From positions 1,484,399 to 1,548,398 of the forward strand of contig JBFLYH010000001.1 of the NCBI GenBank assembly GCA_040756875.1: DNA of 64,000 nucleotides, given 5' to 3'. Source of the DNA: a candidate division FCPU426 bacterium. GTDB taxonomy: Bacteria; Oederibacteriota; JAAXVQ01; JAUVAV01. Positions 20,015 to 29,119 of the stretch are shown here, piece after piece. Made by a program: the position numbers and the translations under genes. The notes beneath the pieces were generated by a model. That model saw nothing but the letters and a program-made list of their open reading frames with translations. It was not told the DNA's origin and did no database searches. Position 1 is the stretch's first letter; the number at the start of each line of letters is the position of its first letter.

Positions 20015-20308
20015 CTAGAACACATAATCCACCGAGGCGCGTTCCTCGACCAAATCCCGCACGTACGCGGCCACGGCTTGGTGCTCGGGGTGCACCCGGT
20101 AGGCCTCCAAATCCGCCAAATTGCGGAACTCCGTGCACAGCGCCACATCGTGGCTGGTATGCGGCGAAGCCAGATTGACGCCCACTTCCAGGTTCACCAC
20201 CAGCGGTATTTTTTCCTGCAGCGCCTCAAGCCGGCCGCGGAGTTCCTTGACCTTGGCCACCAAGCGGTTTTCCGGTTTGAGTTTCCACAGAACGATGTGT
20301 TTGATCAT
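20015..20308 (-). CDS. Dabb family stress-responsive A/B barrel protein
   Basis: MIKHIVLWKLK...LEAYRVHPEHQAV...VDY. Confidence 0.92.
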   Translation of the reverse strand: MIKHIVLWKLKPENRLVAKVKELRGRLEALQEKIPLVVNLEVGVNLASPHTSHDVALCTEFRNLADLEAYRVHPEHQAVAAYVRDLVEERASVDYVF

Positions 20309-20649
20309 ATTCGGCGTCTCCTCCGGCCCATCCGGATCAATTCAGCTTTAGCTGCGCGCGTCAAGCGCTTGATTTGCAGTTCACGCCTCATGGCCGCGCT
20401 TAAATCCGAGCAGGCCTCCTGATAGACCAGTTTCACCGGCTTATGGGAGGCGGTGTATTTGGCGCCCCGCCCCTGGTTGTGCTGCTTGATCCGATGCTCC
20501 ACATCCACCGTCAGGCCGGTGTAAAAGGACTTGTCACGGCAGCGGACGATGTAAACGAAAAAACGGCGTTTGGCTTTCCGCCGTCTTGCCAGCCGCTGTT
20601 TGGTTTTCAGTTTCTGTTCCTCCGCGCAACGGCTCTGCTCCGCGCCCAA
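20305..20649 (-). CDS. GIY-YIG nuclease (UPF0213-like); start uncertain, probably downstream of 20649
   Basis: FVYIVRCRDKSFYTGLT...RIKQHNQGRGAKYT...AMRRELQIK. Confidence 0.88.
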   Translation of the reverse strand: MGAEQSRCAEEQKLKTKQRLARRRKAKRRFFVYIVRCRDKSFYTGLTVDVEHRIKQHNQGRGAKYTASHKPVKLVYQEACSDLSAAMRRELQIKRLTRAAKAELIRMGRRRRRI

Positions 20650-20659
20650 GGCGCGGAGT

Positions 20660-21011
20660 TGGTGGAGGCGGCGGGAATCGAACCCGCGTCCGAAAGACTT
20701 CCTGCTGGCCCCTCTACATGCTTAGTCCCGATTTTCCAGCTCGCCTTGCGATCCTCCTCGGAACCGGATGGTCATAAGGCTATTCCCGGTAATTCTCGCC
20801 CGACCGCCCCAGGACCGAACGGCCAAGCCACCCTGCGAAGTGTCGCCCCATGGCCCCGGCAGGGTCGAAACCATGGAACGTGCAACCTAATTAGGCTGCG
20901 AGTGCGAACTCAGGTTCAGCAGTTAAAGGTTCCACCGTATTTAACGAGGTGAGATGGATTCCTCGGCATGCCAAGCCAACCAAAAGACTCCCGTCGAATC
21001 CAAGCGCCCCC
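20660..21011 (-). ncRNA. ssrA: tmRNA; tag peptide (A)AEPEFALAA* at 20920-20891
   Basis: 5' GGGGGCGCTTGGATTCGACGGG, 3' GACGCGGGTTCGATTCCCGCCGCCTCCACCA with a G3-U acceptor pair. Resume context TTAACT-GCT and a tag ending LAA-TAA. Confidence 0.97.
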
Positions 21012-21218
21012 AGTCTTTTCGCGAAGCGAAAAGACAGAGCAGTGGAGCAGGTGAACAGTGGAGCAGGTGAGCAAAAGCTCCACTGCGACCAAAGGAAGTC
21101 CCTTCAGGGACGGTCCACTGTTCTACTGCTCAACTGTTCAAGCCCTTTTGCCCCGCTTATTCACCCTCTTTGCTCCGGCCTGTTCTACTGGTCGTCGCCT
21201 CTTGCCATTTTCGCCCTT

Positions 21219-23898: not shown

Positions 23899-24639
23899 TC
23901 ACATGGACAGCCGTTTGAACATTGACTCGGGAATCGAACGGACGATCAGCATGATCCAGCGCCAATATCCGGGCAGGTAAACCACGTCCCGGCCCTGTTT
24001 GACCGCCCGTATAATCCCCGCGGCAATGGTTTCGGCTGAAGCGAAGAGCAGGCCCTTTTTAAGATGGCGGGTCATGGGCGTGTCCACGAAACCGGGCTTC
24101 ACGGTCAGCACGCGCACACGGCTTTTGTATAGCCGGTTGCGCAGCCCCTGTAAATAGGCGGAAAAACCCGCTTTGGCTGAACCGTAATAATAGTTGCTCT
24201 GGCGGCCGCGGTCCCCGGCCACAGAGGAAACGCCCACGATCAGGCCCTGCTTCCGGCGCTCCAGGTGCGGGACCAGGCGTTCCAGCACGGAGACTGCGCC
24301 CGTGAAGTTCGCGGCCAGCATGTCCTGGACCAGGCTGAAATCCTTCTGCGCCTCCTCCTGGGGATGCAGGATTCCGAAAAACAGGTATACTTCGTCCACG
24401 GCCTTGACCTTGCGCATGACCTCCTGCACGAAACGGTCGTGAGTGTCCGGGCGCAGGGCGTCGAAGCCCATGACCAGGGGTTCTGGCCCCTGGTTGCGCA
24501 CCGCCGCATCCGCCGCGGTCTTGCGCAGCTCGGCTGTGTTCCGGCTGGCGAGGATCAGCCGGTTGTCCGGCCCGGCCAGTTTCCGGATCAAGGCCTTGGC
24601 CATGCCCGAATTCGCGCCGAGAACGAGAACGGTTTTCAT
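23899..24639 (-). CDS. SDR oxidoreductase, DprE2-like (polyprenyl-phospho-2-keto-pentose reductase family)
   Basis: LGANSGMA, SSVAGDRGRQSNYYYGSAKAG and VKPGFVDTPMT. Paired with a DprE1-like gene. Confidence 0.85.
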   Translation of the reverse strand: MKTVLVLGANSGMAKALIRKLAGPDNRLILASRNTAELRKTAADAAVRNQGPEPLVMGFDALRPDTHDRFVQEVMRKVKAVDEVYLFFGILHPQEEAQKDFSLVQDMLAANFTGAVSVLERLVPHLERRKQGLIVGVSSVAGDRGRQSNYYYGSAKAGFSAYLQGLRNRLYKSRVRVLTVKPGFVDTPMTRHLKKGLLFASAETIAAGIIRAVKQGRDVVYLPGYWRWIMLIVRSIPESMFKRLSM

Positions 24640-24681
24640 ACGCTCCTCCACGTTTTAAATCGAATGATACCGGACGATCGT

Positions 24682-24819
24682 CGGAGGAGGAAGCCTTTCA
24701 TTGCTTGTTCAAACTGCCCCGGCATGCAAAAGCCGCGGGGTGGCAACTGCATGGGTCTAGGGAAATTTGAGCGACCGGGGCAAAACGTGATCACAAGCAA
24801 CGAAAGGCTCCCTCCTCCG
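24682..24819 (-). repeat. Nested-hairpin element E1 (27-bp terminal inverted repeat plus inner TGCCCCGG/CCGGGGCA stem)
   Basis: 24682-24708 is the reverse complement of 24793-24819 with 2 mismatches, both G-U pairs on the minus strand. Confidence 0.85.
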
Positions 24820-24859
24820 GCACTCCTAATCATTTTCTTCCCCACTACTCCTGTTGCTT

Positions 24860-25002
24860 GGCTCTGGAGGCGAAGAAAAATTTGCCGGCGTTCATGTTCT
24901 GCCCCTGTCGCCCGAATTCAAATTAACCAAGGCCAAACCTCACAAGTTCATTTGCATACAGGGGCAATTAACGCGTGCAAATTTTTCTTCGCCTCCAGAG
25001 CC
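24860..25002 (+). repeat. Nested-hairpin element E2 (perfect 26-bp terminal inverted repeat plus inner TGCCCCTGT/ACAGGGGCA stem); inverted homologue of E1
   Basis: GGCTCTGGAGGCGAAGAAAAATTTGC (24860-24885) is the exact reverse complement of 24977-25002. Confidence 0.9.
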
Positions 25003-25003
25003 T

Positions 25004-26371
25004 TCATCCCCCTACTAGCCCCAACCTCCGCCCCATATCCGAGGCGAACACGCCCTGGGGATCGTACTTGGCCCGCGCCCGTTTCCACTCCTTGAGGCGG
25101 GGGTACATGCGTTCGAAGGTCTTGCGCTGCATGCGGCTGTCCTTGGCCAGGTAGAGGCGTCCTCCGAACTTGAGCACCAGCCGGTCCCATTCGTCCATGT
25201 GCTTCAGGATCGACCCGTCGCCCACCGGAAAATCCAGGGCCAGGAAATATCCCGGTTCGGGAAAGGACAAGGGCGCCGGGTTTTTCATGGGCCCGAATTT
25301 TTTCAGCACGGCCAGGAAAGAGGCCTTGCCGGTTTTGGCGATCGCCTCCAGCACCGCGCGCACGCCTTCGAAGCTGTGCGGCGGCGGGATGAGGAATTGG
25401 TACTGCAGCATGCCGCGCCGGCCGTATCCTCGGTTCCAATGCAGGATCGAGTCCAGCGGATAAAAGAAGCTGTCGTAATCCATGATGGTTTCCAGCCGCC
25501 GGGGGTGCTTGCCGTAATAAACCAGGTTGAACGCGTGCATGCTGAGCGGATTGAGCGCCAGCTCCGGGAAATCGAAGGGCACCGCAATTTTAAGTTTGCG
25601 GGGCACGGCCAGGGGTTCGCGGCGCTGGCGGGCACTGGCGAGTTCGGACTGCTTGGCAAAACGGCCGCGCATGAGAATGCTGCGTCCCAGGCTGCGGCCC
25701 TGGGCCAGGCAGTCGATCCAGGCCACGGTCATGAGCTCGGCCGGGGTCTCTTCCAGCAGGCGGAAGATGCCCTCCAGGTTGGGCGCTTTCAAGCCTTCAT
25801 ATTTAACATAGCTGCTCTCGATCTTCATCAGGTCCAGTTCCACGCTGGTGATGACGCCGGTAAGCCCCATGCCGCCCACGGTCGCCCAAAACAGGTCGGG
25901 TTTCTCGGTGGGCGAGCAGGATACCTCCCGGCCGTCGGCCAGCACCAGGTGCAGCCGGCGCAGGTAGTGGCCGAGCGGAAAGCGGCTCTTGCCGTGCACG
26001 TCGCAGGCCACGCACCCGCCGAGCGTGGGATACTGCGTGCCAGGCGTCACCGGCATAAACCAGCCCCGCGGCACCAGGGTGTGCAGCACCTGTTCCAGCG
26101 TCACTCCGGCTTCGGCGTGCAGGCGGCCGCGCTGGGCGTCGAAACCCAAAAACCGGTCTGCGGGCACGCAGTCCAGGCACCAGCCGTCGCGGTTCAAGGA
26201 GGCGTCGCCGTAGCTCCGACCCTCGCCCCGCGCCAGCACCGGGCGGCCCTGGCGGCCGGCCAGCCGGCGCTGCACGTCTGATGCGGACCACACGGGCTCG
26301 ACCTGCGCCTGGCTCCTGGGATACCGCCCCCAGCCGCACAGGGTTTGCATGGGCACGCCCTTGGTTGTCAT
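25004..26371 (-). CDS. FAD-linked oxidoreductase, DprE1-like (polyprenyl-phosphoribose 2'-oxidase family)
   Basis: GWGRYP, ARGEGRSYGDASLN, PVTPGT..TLGGCVACDVHGK, FFYPLD, FLAVLKKFG and GGRLYLAKDSR. Confidence 0.9.
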   Translation of the reverse strand: MTTKGVPMQTLCGWGRYPRSQAQVEPVWSASDVQRRLAGRQGRPVLARGEGRSYGDASLNRDGWCLDCVPADRFLGFDAQRGRLHAEAGVTLEQVLHTLVPRGWFMPVTPGTQYPTLGGCVACDVHGKSRFPLGHYLRRLHLVLADGREVSCSPTEKPDLFWATVGGMGLTGVITSVELDLMKIESSYVKYEGLKAPNLEGIFRLLEETPAELMTVAWIDCLAQGRSLGRSILMRGRFAKQSELASARQRREPLAVPRKLKIAVPFDFPELALNPLSMHAFNLVYYGKHPRRLETIMDYDSFFYPLDSILHWNRGYGRRGMLQYQFLIPPPHSFEGVRAVLEAIAKTGKASFLAVLKKFGPMKNPAPLSFPEPGYFLALDFPVGDGSILKHMDEWDRLVLKFGGRLYLAKDSRMQRKTFERMYPRLKEWKRARAKYDPQGVFASDMGRRLGLVGG

Positions 26372-26375
26372 CCGA

Positions 26376-26843
26376 TCATTCCCTCCCCCGCTGCCGCAAC
26401 TGGCGGTCGGTTTCGCGCTTGATGTCCCGCTCCTTGAGCGCCTGCTTTTTGTCGTGAGTCTGCTTGCCTTTGGCCAGGGCCAGCTCCACTTTGACCTTGT
26501 TCCCTTTCAGGTAAATGGACAGCGGCACCAAGGTGCACCCCCGCTGCGCCACCTGACCGGCCAGTTTATGAATCTCGCGCCTGTGCATGAGCAGCCGGCG
26601 CGTGCGCGTGGGATCGGGGTTCTGGCGGTTGCCCTGGGGATAGGGGGAAATGTGCAGGTTCAGGAGAAACAGCGAACCCTCTTTCACCAGCCCGTAGCTG
26701 TCCACGAGGTTGCCCTCGCCGGCGCGCAGGGACTTGACCTCGCAGCCGACCAGGGCGATGCCCGCTTCGTGCTTCTCCAGGATGTGGTAGAGGTGCAGGG
26801 CCTTGCGGTTGCGCACCAGCACGCGGATCTCCGGCTCGCTCAC
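26376..26843 (-). CDS. smpB: SsrA-binding protein
   Basis: NRKALHLYHILEKHEAGIALVGCEVKSLR...RRLLMHRREI...LAKGKQTHDKK. Confidence 0.97.
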   Translation of the reverse strand: MSEPEIRVLVRNRKALHLYHILEKHEAGIALVGCEVKSLRAGEGNLVDSYGLVKEGSLFLLNLHISPYPQGNRQNPDPTRTRRLLMHRREIHKLAGQVAQRGCTLVPLSIYLKGNKVKVELALAKGKQTHDKKQALKERDIKRETDRQLRQRGRE

Positions 26844-29119
26844 AATCGCCTCCGGCCGCCCCGCTTCGCGACCCGCGGCGGATTGCGCCGTGCAGGCGCG
26901 GCAGGCGGCTCTTCGTCCAGGCGGAAATAAACGCGGCTCTCCGCCTGGTCCACGGCCGCCACCCGCACGCTGACCTTGTCCCCGGTCGCGAACAGCCGGC
27001 CGTGGTTGGCTCCCACCAGCACGCGCTTGCGGTCGTCGAAGTAATAATAGTCATCCAGAAGGTCCGGAATCCGCACCAGGCCCTCCACGAAAACCTCGTC
27101 CAGTTCCACGAAAAAACCGAAGTTCGCGACCGAGCCGATCACGCCGGAATACGTCCGCCCGATTTTATCCGACATGAACTCGGCCTGTTTGAGCTTCACG
27201 GCCTCGCGCTCCGCTTTTTCCGCCCGCCGCTCAGTGGCGGACAACTGCATGCCGAGCAGCTCCAGCCTGGCCAGGGCCAGCGGTTTGCCCGCCAGGCTGG
27301 CCACGAGCTGGCGGTGCACCAGCAAGTCCGGATAGCGCCGGATGGGCGAGGTAAAGTGCGTGTAACAGGCGCTGGCCAGGCCGAAATGCCCCTGGTTGCG
27401 CGGCGAGTAGACGGCCAGCTTCATGGCGCGCAGCAGCGACATGTTCAACAGCGGGGCCTCGGGTTTGTCCTGCCAGGACCGCAGCAGCTTTTGGAAAGCC
27501 TTGGCCGCTTCGCGGGGTTTGCCGAGCCTGAGCTCGTAGCCGTAGGCCGCGATAAACTCACGGAAATCCTCCAGCTTCTCGCCGTCCGGCGTCTCGTGGA
27601 TCCGATAGAGCGTCGGCAGGCTGTGCCGCTGCAGGTGGCGCGCCACGGCCTCGTTGGCCGCGAGCATGCAGTCCTCGATGAGCCGGTGGCTCGCGAGCTG
27701 CGGCCGGCGCTCGATGGTGGTAACCCGGCCGTCCGGGCCGAGCACCACGCGCGGGTCCGGCAGGTCGAAGTCCAGGCTGCCGCGGCCCATGCGCTGGCGT
27801 CGCAGGGCCTGGGACACGGCCCACAGGCGCTTGAGCTCGGGGATAAAGCGTCCGGCCGGGTCTTCGGCCGGCCGTCCGGCCAGCACCTCCTCCACGCCCT
27901 CGTAGGTCAGGCGGGCCGCACTGTGGATCACGCTCCGGCTGAATTCGGCGTGGGACACCCGGCCGTCCGGCTCCACGGTCAACAGTGCGCTCACGGCCAG
28001 GCGGTCGAGGTCCGGACGCAGGCTGCAAACTCCGCACGACAGCGGTTCAGGCAGCATGTGCAGCACCCGGTCCGGCAGGTAAACGCTGGTGCCGCGCTCC
28101 CTGGCCTCCGCGTCCAGCAGCGACCCCGGCGCCAGGTAATGCGCCACGTCGGCGATGTGCACGCCCAGATGCCAGCCGCCGCCCGGCCGGTCCGCGCAGG
28201 AGACCGCGTCGTCGAAATCGCGCGCATCCGCACCGTCGATGGTGAAGATGGTTTCTTTCCGCAGGTCCAGGCGGCCGCGGCAGGCTGCTTCGTCCGGTTC
28301 GCGGGCCGCGGCAGCGGCCTGCTCCCAGGCGGGCGCGGAAAAGCGGTCGGGAATCTCGAAACGCCGGATCAGGGAGGTGATGTCCACGCCCGGCTCGTCC
28401 GGCCGGCCGAGCACCTCTTCGACGTGGGCCTGCCCCGGCTCCAGGCCGCGCGGCCATACGGTCACGCGCGCCACGACTTTTTGCCCGGATTTGGCGCCCG
28501 TGCGCCGGTTGGCCGGCACGACCAGGTCGCTAGCCGTGAAGAATCCTTCGGGCTTGATCCAGGTCTGTCCCTGCCGCTCGCTGAGCACGCCCACCACGGT
28601 CTGTCTGGCCCGCTCCAGCACCCGCACGATCTGGCCGCGGCGCCGGGCCACTTCGCCCGGCCGCCGGCCGGGCTGGGTGAACACACGGACTTCGACCAGG
28701 TCCTCGGGCAGGGCGTCGAGCAGGTCCGGCCCGGCCACGTAACAATCCGTCTGGCCGGCATCCAGGGGAATGACGAAGCCGAACCCGGGCTGGCTCTGTT
28801 GCAGCCTCCCCCGCAGTATCGCGGCGGATGTGCCGCGGCGCTCGCGCGGGGCAGGCGCGGCTTTGGCCGGTTTGGCCGCCGACTGCTGCTTCTTAGCCCG
28901 AAATCCGGACGCCGGCAGACCGAACAGGCCACCGCGCAGCCGCACGATCTGGCCTTCGGACTGGAGAGATTGCAGACGGCCGGCCAGATCCCTGCGCCGG
29001 CCGGCAGGCAGGCGCAGGCGCTGCAGCAGCTGCCTCAGGGACAGCGGCCCGGCGTGCAAGTGGGACAGAATCGTTCCGGATAAAACCGCCGGGCCGGATT
29101 GAAATTTGCGTTTGGACAC
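26840..29119 (-). CDS. rnr: Ribonuclease R
   Basis: GFGFV cold-shock domain, TIDGADARDFDDA, HFGLAS..YTHFTSPIRRYPDL and C-terminal S1 domain. Adjacent to smpB. Confidence 0.96.
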   Translation of the reverse strand: MSKRKFQSGPAVLSGTILSHLHAGPLSLRQLLQRLRLPAGRRRDLAGRLQSLQSEGQIVRLRGGLFGLPASGFRAKKQQSAAKPAKAAPAPRERRGTSAAILRGRLQQSQPGFGFVIPLDAGQTDCYVAGPDLLDALPEDLVEVRVFTQPGRRPGEVARRRGQIVRVLERARQTVVGVLSERQGQTWIKPEGFFTASDLVVPANRRTGAKSGQKVVARVTVWPRGLEPGQAHVEEVLGRPDEPGVDITSLIRRFEIPDRFSAPAWEQAAAAAREPDEAACRGRLDLRKETIFTIDGADARDFDDAVSCADRPGGGWHLGVHIADVAHYLAPGSLLDAEARERGTSVYLPDRVLHMLPEPLSCGVCSLRPDLDRLAVSALLTVEPDGRVSHAEFSRSVIHSAARLTYEGVEEVLAGRPAEDPAGRFIPELKRLWAVSQALRRQRMGRGSLDFDLPDPRVVLGPDGRVTTIERRPQLASHRLIEDCMLAANEAVARHLQRHSLPTLYRIHETPDGEKLEDFREFIAAYGYELRLGKPREAAKAFQKLLRSWQDKPEAPLLNMSLLRAMKLAVYSPRNQGHFGLASACYTHFTSPIRRYPDLLVHRQLVASLAGKPLALARLELLGMQLSATERRAEKAEREAVKLKQAEFMSDKIGRTYSGVIGSVANFGFFVELDEVFVEGLVRIPDLLDDYYYFDDRKRVLVGANHGRLFATGDKVSVRVAAVDQAESRVYFRLDEEPPAAPARRNPPRVAKRGGRRRL

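Follow-up and report, generated by a model that had tools for sequence, protein, structure and literature searches.

REP units are 20–40 nt long and carry a GTAG-type head, and REPIN populations comprise tens to hundreds of members. REP sequences located within 15 nt of a stop codon reportedly stall ribosomes, an effect said to have been described by Liang, Rudd and Deutscher in 2015. The Correia/NEMIS elements of Neisseria are hairpin MITEs of ~100–155 bp with terminal inverted repeats of ~24–26 bp; they are co-transcribed with their neighbors, and RNase III cleaves Correia-containing mRNAs at the inverted repeats (PMC2229807, PMC10969869). The ERIC/IRU elements of enterobacteria are imperfect palindromes of ~127 bp with an asymmetric interior, which lie in either orientation inside operons and have orientation-dependent effects on mRNA stability (PMC2229807).

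The locus described here is a pair of nested hairpins, E1 and E2, lying between a dprE1-like and a dprE2-like gene. It is restricted to a single genus within an uncultured lineage from groundwater and opens no new class of biology. It stands out by how large its units are, by being fixed as one inverted pair and by how strongly its internal loops are constrained.

Two inverted nested hairpins in one intergenic gap

Unless a contig or locus is named, coordinates refer to the window, by which we mean the whole analyzed stretch of 64,000 nt. An inverted-repeat search confirmed the two long hairpins that a first-pass annotation, made from the sequence letters, had placed between the two genes: the arms of E1 are 27 nt long with 2 mismatches, and those of E2 can be extended to 36 nt at 92% pairing. 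The dprE1–dprE2 intergenic gap measures 364 nt, from the ATG at 24639 to the TGA at 25004–25006, and houses both elements. The features of the region are:

23899–24639, minus strand: dprE2-like short-chain dehydrogenase gene (246 aa), the downstream gene, with its ATG at 24639
24643–24649, minus strand: Shine–Dalgarno-like GGAGGAG of the dprE2-like gene, beginning 33 nt past the end of E1 on the mRNA
24682–24819, minus strand: E1, a 138-nt nested hairpin; this strand is homologous to the plus strand of E2 and is also the mRNA strand; 153 bits with R1, the covariance model built from E1 and E2
24682–24708: left arm of the E1 outer stem, pairing with 24793–24819
24793–24819: right arm of the E1 outer stem; the two non-Watson–Crick pairs are G-U on the minus strand
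24715–24722: arm of the E1 inner stem, a G+C-rich 8-mer pairing with 24775–24782; the adjoining unpaired blocks are conserved
24775–24782: second arm of the E1 inner stem
24820–24859: spacer between E1 and E2 (40 nt), poorly conserved, with 21/40 positions identical in the sister species
24860–25002, plus strand: E2, a 143-nt nested hairpin, inverted relative to E1, with its base 1 nt from the dprE1-like stop codon
24860–24885: left arm of the E2 outer stem, a perfect 26 bp with 24977–25002
24977–25002: right arm of the E2 outer stem
24900–24907: arm of the E2 inner stem, pairing with 24959–24966
24959–24966: second arm of the E2 inner stem
25004–26371, minus strand: dprE1-like FAD oxidase gene (455 aa, FAD_binding_4 and ALO), the upstream gene, with its TGA at 25004–25006

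Folding of each element on both strands gave energies of -74.5 to -80.5 kcal/mol (z -8.2 to -11.3), and none of 200 shuffles folded as well. We observed no consistent strand preference, and an assignment of the strand by folding energy was rejected because the energies are inconsistent. The modeled dprE1–dprE2 mRNA folds into both hairpins. The core motif occurs 2 times in the window against 0.30 expected, four G+C-rich boxes form inverted repeats within and between the elements, and no GTAG head was seen in the sequence of E1 or E2.

Read on the minus strand, E1 aligns with E2 read on the plus strand with one gap only, as the first-pass annotation had claimed; the motif string and the inner regions of 56 and 55 nt that it gave are likewise correct, and so is its reading of the two E1 mismatches as G-U pairs on the minus strand. 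Counted by hand, 61 of 100 columns are identical in the core (columns 20–119) and 7 of 38 in the outer stem. The claim that the outer stems differ yet still pair holds as well: all 19 outer pairs form in both E1 and E2, and 18 of the 38 predicted pairs are changed on both sides between the two elements.

We then aligned four sequences, consisting of E1 and E2 from the genome of this DNA (G000) and from the sister species (G001), the sole same-genus genome compared. In this alignment 96.4% of the cells pair, compared to 80.1% in shuffles (0/500 as high), and 15 of 36 pairs are changed on both sides, which again was reached by none of 500 shuffles; controls with slid partners gave 42–55% pairing. 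A GGAGG/CCTCC block near the base of the outer stem and a TTGC/GCAA block at its top are kept in all four copies, from which it follows that the stems are homologous and diverged and were not built from local DNA.

Within a palindrome, covariation looks the same in RNA and in DNA and on either strand. The three wobble pairs of the outer stems are G-U without exception on the homology-sense strand (minus for E1, plus for E2), and the wobble pair in the E2 of the sister species becomes an A-C mismatch on the mRNA. As the two elements carry the same unpaired motifs in opposite orientation, their loops on one mRNA are complementary and not identical. One RNA-binding factor would account for these opposed motifs less well than a reader that acts on DNA or on opposite strands. 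A loop–loop pairing between E2 and E1 on one mRNA was rejected, since none of the three loop substitutions that separate the species has a compensating change in the other element.

One locus in one genus

Searching the 3.22-Mb, 100%-complete own genome with R1 returned only E1 and E2. No further copy was found there by nhmmer with filters off (--max), where the next best match had E = 0.58, and blastn located the arms of E1 and E2 nowhere else in this genome. Among 61 related genomes R1 matched the sister species alone, twice, at the syntenic site, and a second model built from all four sequences (R2) found only these two species in 99 genomes of the phylum. We further searched for a core pattern of two invariant blocks with a 25–55-nt gap, a pattern that diverged relatives would escape: 5 loci were found in 185,579 species genomes, of which only the record of the sister species scores with R1, 6 loci were found in metagenome contigs, none of them real by R1, and 0 loci in viral contigs. 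Comparing 24000–25600 with Rfam at E <= 10 gave chance matches only, the best overlap being a microRNA model with 20.3 bits against a gathering score of 85.

Within the reach of these searches, E1 and E2 are known as four sequences from one locus in one genus, and they are not a widespread RNA or DNA family. The first-pass annotation had proposed a new structured RNA/DNA family. Rfam indeed holds no match to E1/E2, but a broad family is not supported, since two covariance models, nhmmer and patterns give one locus in two species; the covariance-model search that the annotation had called for gave no copies beyond this locus in either the 61 or the 99 genomes.

An insertion behind the dprE1 stop codon

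All 11 genomes of the family have a dprE1 homolog. In 6 of the 9 besides this genome and the sister species, the dprE1–dprE2 gap, measured from tblastn starts and ORF ends, is 19–31 nt (among them G007, G010 and G002 with 19 nt each, G008 with 22 nt and G005 with 31 nt), which provides the empty site in relatives that the annotation had asked about. The gap of G006 measures 160 nt with no recognizable element. In G009 it measures 212 nt and contains two short GTAG-headed palindromes in inverted arrangement, a REP-like doublet (L035:563-669). In G004 the contig ends within the gap, and a similar REP doublet (L040:1-56) stops 1 nt from the dprE1 stop. At the dprE1 locus of G003 no dprE2 homolog was matched. 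The E1/E2 pair is an insertion at the dprE1–dprE2 junction, and three lineages bear different palindromic inserts at this one junction, behind the dprE1 stop.

The hallmarks of mobility are missing for E1 and E2, as there is no further copy, no clear target duplication and no element with matching ends. The search for a target duplication yielded one 15-nt direct repeat (spacer versus right flank), which 57 of 2000 shuffles equaled or surpassed and which was not seen in the sister species. In the own genome, blastn found no parent insertion sequence with ends matching E1/E2. The contigs of one DNA run, possibly the source sample itself, showed no variants or joints at the E1/E2 region.

Sequence constraint between two sister species

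The ortholog of E1 in the sister species lies at L028:1317-1454 and that of E2 at L028:1498-1641, with its base 0–2 nt from the stop. As only two species are compared, every figure on constraint given here is one pairwise comparison per element. The 5'UTR, the spacer and the two apical regions are each 50–54% identical between the species, and 5'UTR, spacer and apical loops pooled are identical at 78/149 positions (about 52%). For the flanking coding DNA we observed 79–82% identity, and for four-fold degenerate sites of the flanking genes 56–63%. The internal-loop and inner-stem blocks of the elements are 83–93% identical: 43 of 52 positions are shared in E1 (P = 5e-6 versus the pooled rate) and 50 of 54 in E2 (P = 1.6e-10 versus the pooled rate). 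The outer arms are identical at 32/50 positions in E1 (P = 0.065) and at 41/52 in E2 (P = 7e-5). Wherever an outer arm has changed, its partner arm has changed with it, E1 showing a 2-nt indel in both of its arms, and the apical 32–37 nt of both elements drift freely.

Judged from these alignments, the apparent constraint on the inserted pair is greater than that at the synonymous sites of the flanking genes. The comparison supports the view that E1 and E2 have been kept by purifying selection on the fold and on the inner bases, and that they do not reflect a recent duplication. The first-pass annotation had suggested selection on a fold, and no recent duplication, from this one stretch; a second species keeping perfect stems through compensated substitutions and a 2-nt indel, amid neighboring non-coding DNA of about 52% identity, bears it out. 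No open frame is conserved in the gap, as frames open in one species carry stops in the other. With no frame open in both species, a coding role was rejected.

Mobile hairpins elsewhere in the genome

By an inverted-repeat scan followed by blastn we found five dispersed families of 90–170-nt nested hairpins in the own genome:

Family A, 5 places, e.g. C2:1057750-1057885
Family B, 11 places, e.g. C1:1258940-1259064
Family C, 26 places, e.g. C2:460768-460905
Family D, 19 places, e.g. C3:168028-168144
Family E, 3 places, e.g. C1:157446-157537

Single-copy hairpins of like build were found at C2:611343-611487, C1:1231283-1231419 and C2:211787-211936, and ten other hairpin loci of this genome gave no match in Rfam. 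In the same scan, five runs of ~100 N showed up as false palindromes and are possible assembly gaps (C1:1116776-1116879, C1:1452296-1452402, C2:126426-126524, C2:702975-703079 and C3:424904-425009). In family B the stems that close the conserved three-way core are copy-specific and still pair, and a conserved core with a copy-specific covarying stem, as in E1/E2, is present in families A and B. By crude ORF calls, counted by eye, about 14 of 24 tabulated hairpin elements begin at most 18 nt from a stop codon.

The hairpin repeats are mobile within the genus. A family A copy at C1:1314639-1314774, located between two tandem minus-strand genes, is absent from the syntenic site of the sister species (C2:436951-436954), where the flanks are 2 nt apart in the BLAST match, and hairpins G and H were not found at their syntenic sites in this species either. 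E1 and E2 differ from these in that they are retained and constrained, while the other hairpins of the genome turned over between the species. The locus is a palindromic insertion that was captured and kept, whereas other hairpin repeats of the genome come and go.

The genome also carries REP sequences proper. A 12-nt GTAG-headed REP motif has 53 matches compared to 4 for the reversed control; it is a perfect palindrome, usually paired 16 nt apart on opposite strands. Elsewhere it has 44 matches in G005 and 13 in the sister species, and altogether 10 of the 11 family genomes contain it. Two RAYT-like Y1_Tnp genes (PF01797), paralogs of 336 aa each, lie at C1:1033649-1034659 and C1:1039783-1040793, both on the minus strand. 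Reading the flank of one of them, we found heptamer-rich family D arrays directly upstream of the second gene. The two genes are candidate mobilizers of the hairpin repeats of this genome. A heptamer-word inverted repeat (GAACAGT/GAGCAGT type) is also present in the window at 21040–21140, between the tmRNA and FlgD_ig genes, and GAACAGT/GAGCAGT-like words recur in several inverted repeats across the genome.

The first-pass annotation had stated that no transposase or integrase lies in the window. This is correct for the four families searched (Y1_Tnp, TnpB-type, tyrosine recombinase and rve), yet the genome has the two RAYT-like Y1 genes about 470 kb away. TnpB-type and rve genes are absent from the genome in this search, and two tyrosine recombinase genes are present, neither of them in the window. 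The proposal that copies might lie near HUH/Y1 transposases was not borne out, as no E-like sequence was found beside either Y1 gene.

Transcript context and a possible role of the pair

Every gene neighboring E1 and E2 is on the minus strand. The search of the dprE1–dprE2 gap turned up no promoter-like site, and the sole terminator-like match in it is the start of the arm of E1. From the co-directional genes and the lack of a terminator or promoter consensus we infer that E1 and E2 are part of the dprE1–dprE2 mRNA. Further genes of the region are:

20305–20649, minus strand: small GIY-YIG gene directly downstream of the tmRNA gene, resembling UPF0213 (PDB 1zg2, 1ywl)
20660–21011, minus strand: tmRNA gene (tag peptide AEPEFALAA), ~5 kb downstream of the smpB and RNase R genes on the same strand
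26376–26843, minus strand: smpB, upstream of the dprE1-like gene
26840–29119, minus strand: RNase R gene, upstream of the dprE1-like gene

Between the smpB and RNase R genes and the tmRNA gene lie the dprE1/dprE2 pair and a gene for an 844-aa FlgD_ig protein. smpB is found upstream of dprE1 in five other family genomes; a link of E1/E2 to trans-translation was dropped, since smpB was not found within ~1.5 kb upstream of the dprE1 of the sister species. The GIY-YIG gene has a putative basic N-terminal extension and no NCBIfam match. With regard to this gene we also considered the Ssn nuclease (cd10448), whose GIY-YIG gene would lie among SRM hairpin repeats, and rejected it: the published degenerate SRM expression has no match in E1/E2 or near the GIY-YIG gene (PMC11893778). 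This expression matches 28 times genome-wide, and 2 times in the first 500 kb of contig C1 compared to 3–11 times in five shuffles.

The explanation we prefer, although we rate it somewhat short of an even chance, is that E1 and E2 are a REPIN/MITE-like palindromic insertion that was co-opted as intercistronic mRNA hairpins. The pair would represent two inverted units of a lineage-specific palindromic insertion of the REPIN-doublet or hairpin-MITE kind, which probably landed directly behind the dprE1-like stop codon in the ancestor of the genus. An ERIC/REPIN-like mobile hairpin was among the options named by the first-pass annotation; as an account of where the pair came from, it has the best support of these options. 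REP-type palindromes appear to have been taken up independently at the same junction in at least two other genera. Selection would then act on three features: the pairing of the outer stems (26–27 bp), the G+C-rich inner stem, and the bases left unpaired in the asymmetric internal loop. If the pair is transcribed within the dprE1–dprE2 mRNA, both long hairpins would most likely serve as intercistronic processing or stability signals. Perfect 26–27-bp duplexes are the type of structure cut by RNase III, and an RNase III gene is encoded in the genome; the hairpins may be a substrate of such a double-strand RNase, or they may block 3' exonucleases. By analogy with Correia and ERIC, the insertion may also have replaced the tight translational coupling of the relatives, the dprE2-like gene now having its own ribosome-binding site.

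Alternative explanations

Several observations fit a function in mRNA less well, namely the opposed loop motifs, the wobbles on the homology-sense strands and the lack of a strand preference, and they keep alive a reading in which E1 and E2 act as single-stranded DNA together with a Y1-type enzyme. A structure-specific DNA enzyme, for instance the two RAYT-like Y1/HUH transposases, would read each hairpin on that hairpin's own strand. The pair would then amount to a giant REPIN-like doublet in which the stems have to pair and nothing more, while the enzyme recognizes the loop bases. The inverted doublet architecture, the conservation of unpaired bases beside freely covarying stems and the outer-stem wobbles, 3/3 of which are G-T on the homology-sense strand of each unit, are consistent with this, as are the two Y1_Tnp genes with the GTAG-headed REP population in the genome and the REP doublets at the same junction in G009 and G004. 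We nevertheless consider it unlikely. There is one doublet per genome compared to the tens to hundreds of REPIN populations, the units of 138–143 nt are several times the known REP size of 20–40 nt, family D heptamer arrays and not E-like sequence lie beside the inspected Y1 gene, and no E-like sequence exists elsewhere in the genome. Moreover, selection for mobility cannot account for a single fixed syntenic copy kept for a long time.

Somewhat less probable still is that E1 and E2 are a domesticated device of two hairpins, with conserved asymmetric internal loops that a specific factor reads on opposite strands. It could take the form of DNA hairpins that each strand extrudes in single-stranded form, a 'giant REPIN' class (~5x REP units), or of a new intercistronic RNA module setting the DprE1:DprE2 ratio. 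If this were true, selfish palindromic DNA would have given rise to a structured cis-element of a new type.

That the pair is a functionless relic, with stems kept perfect by arm-to-arm correction in replication or repair and not by selection, seems improbable to us. Covariation in a palindrome alone cannot separate selection from such copying, the 2-nt indel is mirrored in both arms of E1, and these arms are only slightly more conserved than neutral DNA (32/50, P = 0.065). However, the unpaired asymmetric loop blocks have no partner for correction and are still 83–93% identical compared to about 52% for neutral DNA, the arms of E2 are clearly conserved (41/52, P = 7e-5), and the three other hairpins that were checked (A3, G and H) were not kept between the species.

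Slightly less credible again is the view that a regulator binds the conserved blocks as double-stranded DNA, its sites being four G+C-rich boxes arranged as two inverted pairs, and that the hairpins are incidental. It would explain why conservation is independent of orientation and why the boxes form inverted repeats within and between the elements, but it leaves unexplained how unrelated 26–27-bp arms stayed perfectly complementary through about a dozen compensated changes, and a place between co-transcribed genes without promoter-like sequence would be odd for an operator.

Two free-standing structured small-RNA genes, divergent from the spacer, can be given very little credence, even though the wobbles suit both homology-sense strands and the folding z-scores are strong: the 40-nt spacer would need two promoters but is conserved at 21/40 positions with no promoter-like match, perfect 26-bp duplexes are atypical of stable bacterial sRNAs, the apical 32–37 nt drift freely and Rfam gives no match. 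Free-standing RNA genes, as one form of the ncRNA motif named by the first-pass annotation, have no support in view of the missing promoter-like site and the poorly conserved spacer.

Integron attC sites are marked by R''/R' boxes (consensus RYYYAAC ... GTTRRRY) at the foot of their hairpin, with an integron integrase close by. This identity was rejected, as the GTT/AAC pair of the elements lies inside the 26-bp outer stem in reverse order and neither tyrosine recombinase is in the window. A riboswitch was rejected since the apical 32–37 nt drift freely and the units face opposite ways.

The capture and retention of a palindromic insertion make the locus a workable test case for selfish hairpin DNA becoming a cis-acting part of an operon, and for the reader of the internal loops.

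Comparison with known systems

As in REPINs with their RAYT genes, the two palindromic units E1 and E2 are homologous, inverted to each other and separated by a short spacer, and they are located in an intergenic gap directly behind a stop codon; their host genome has RAYT-like genes and GTAG-headed REP sequences, and in two other genera this junction is taken by true REP doublets. Unlike REPs, the units measure 138–143 nt, are nested hairpins and have no GTAG head, and the true REP of the genome is a different sequence. Furthermore, there is one doublet per genome and no population, and neither Y1 gene is flanked by E-like sequence.

With MITEs the pair shares terminal inverted repeats of 26–27 bp on a short non-coding element and an empty site in relatives. 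It differs from them in having only two adjacent copies, in this genome and likewise in the sister species, and no parent element with matching ends. The Correia/NEMIS elements are of similar size and have inverted repeats of similar length, but they exist in >100 copies with TA target duplications and conserved terminal repeats. E1 and E2, in contrast, are two adjacent copies without a clear duplication, and the sequence of the arms differs between the copies. The ERIC/IRU elements resemble E1/E2 as imperfect palindromes with an asymmetric interior inside an operon context. We found no sequence or Rfam relationship between them and E1/E2, and whereas ERIC is multi-copy and common to a bacterial family, E1/E2 are restricted to a single locus in one genus. 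Taken together, E1 and E2 are a genus-restricted, selectively retained variant of palindromic insertions of the REPIN/Correia/ERIC kind.
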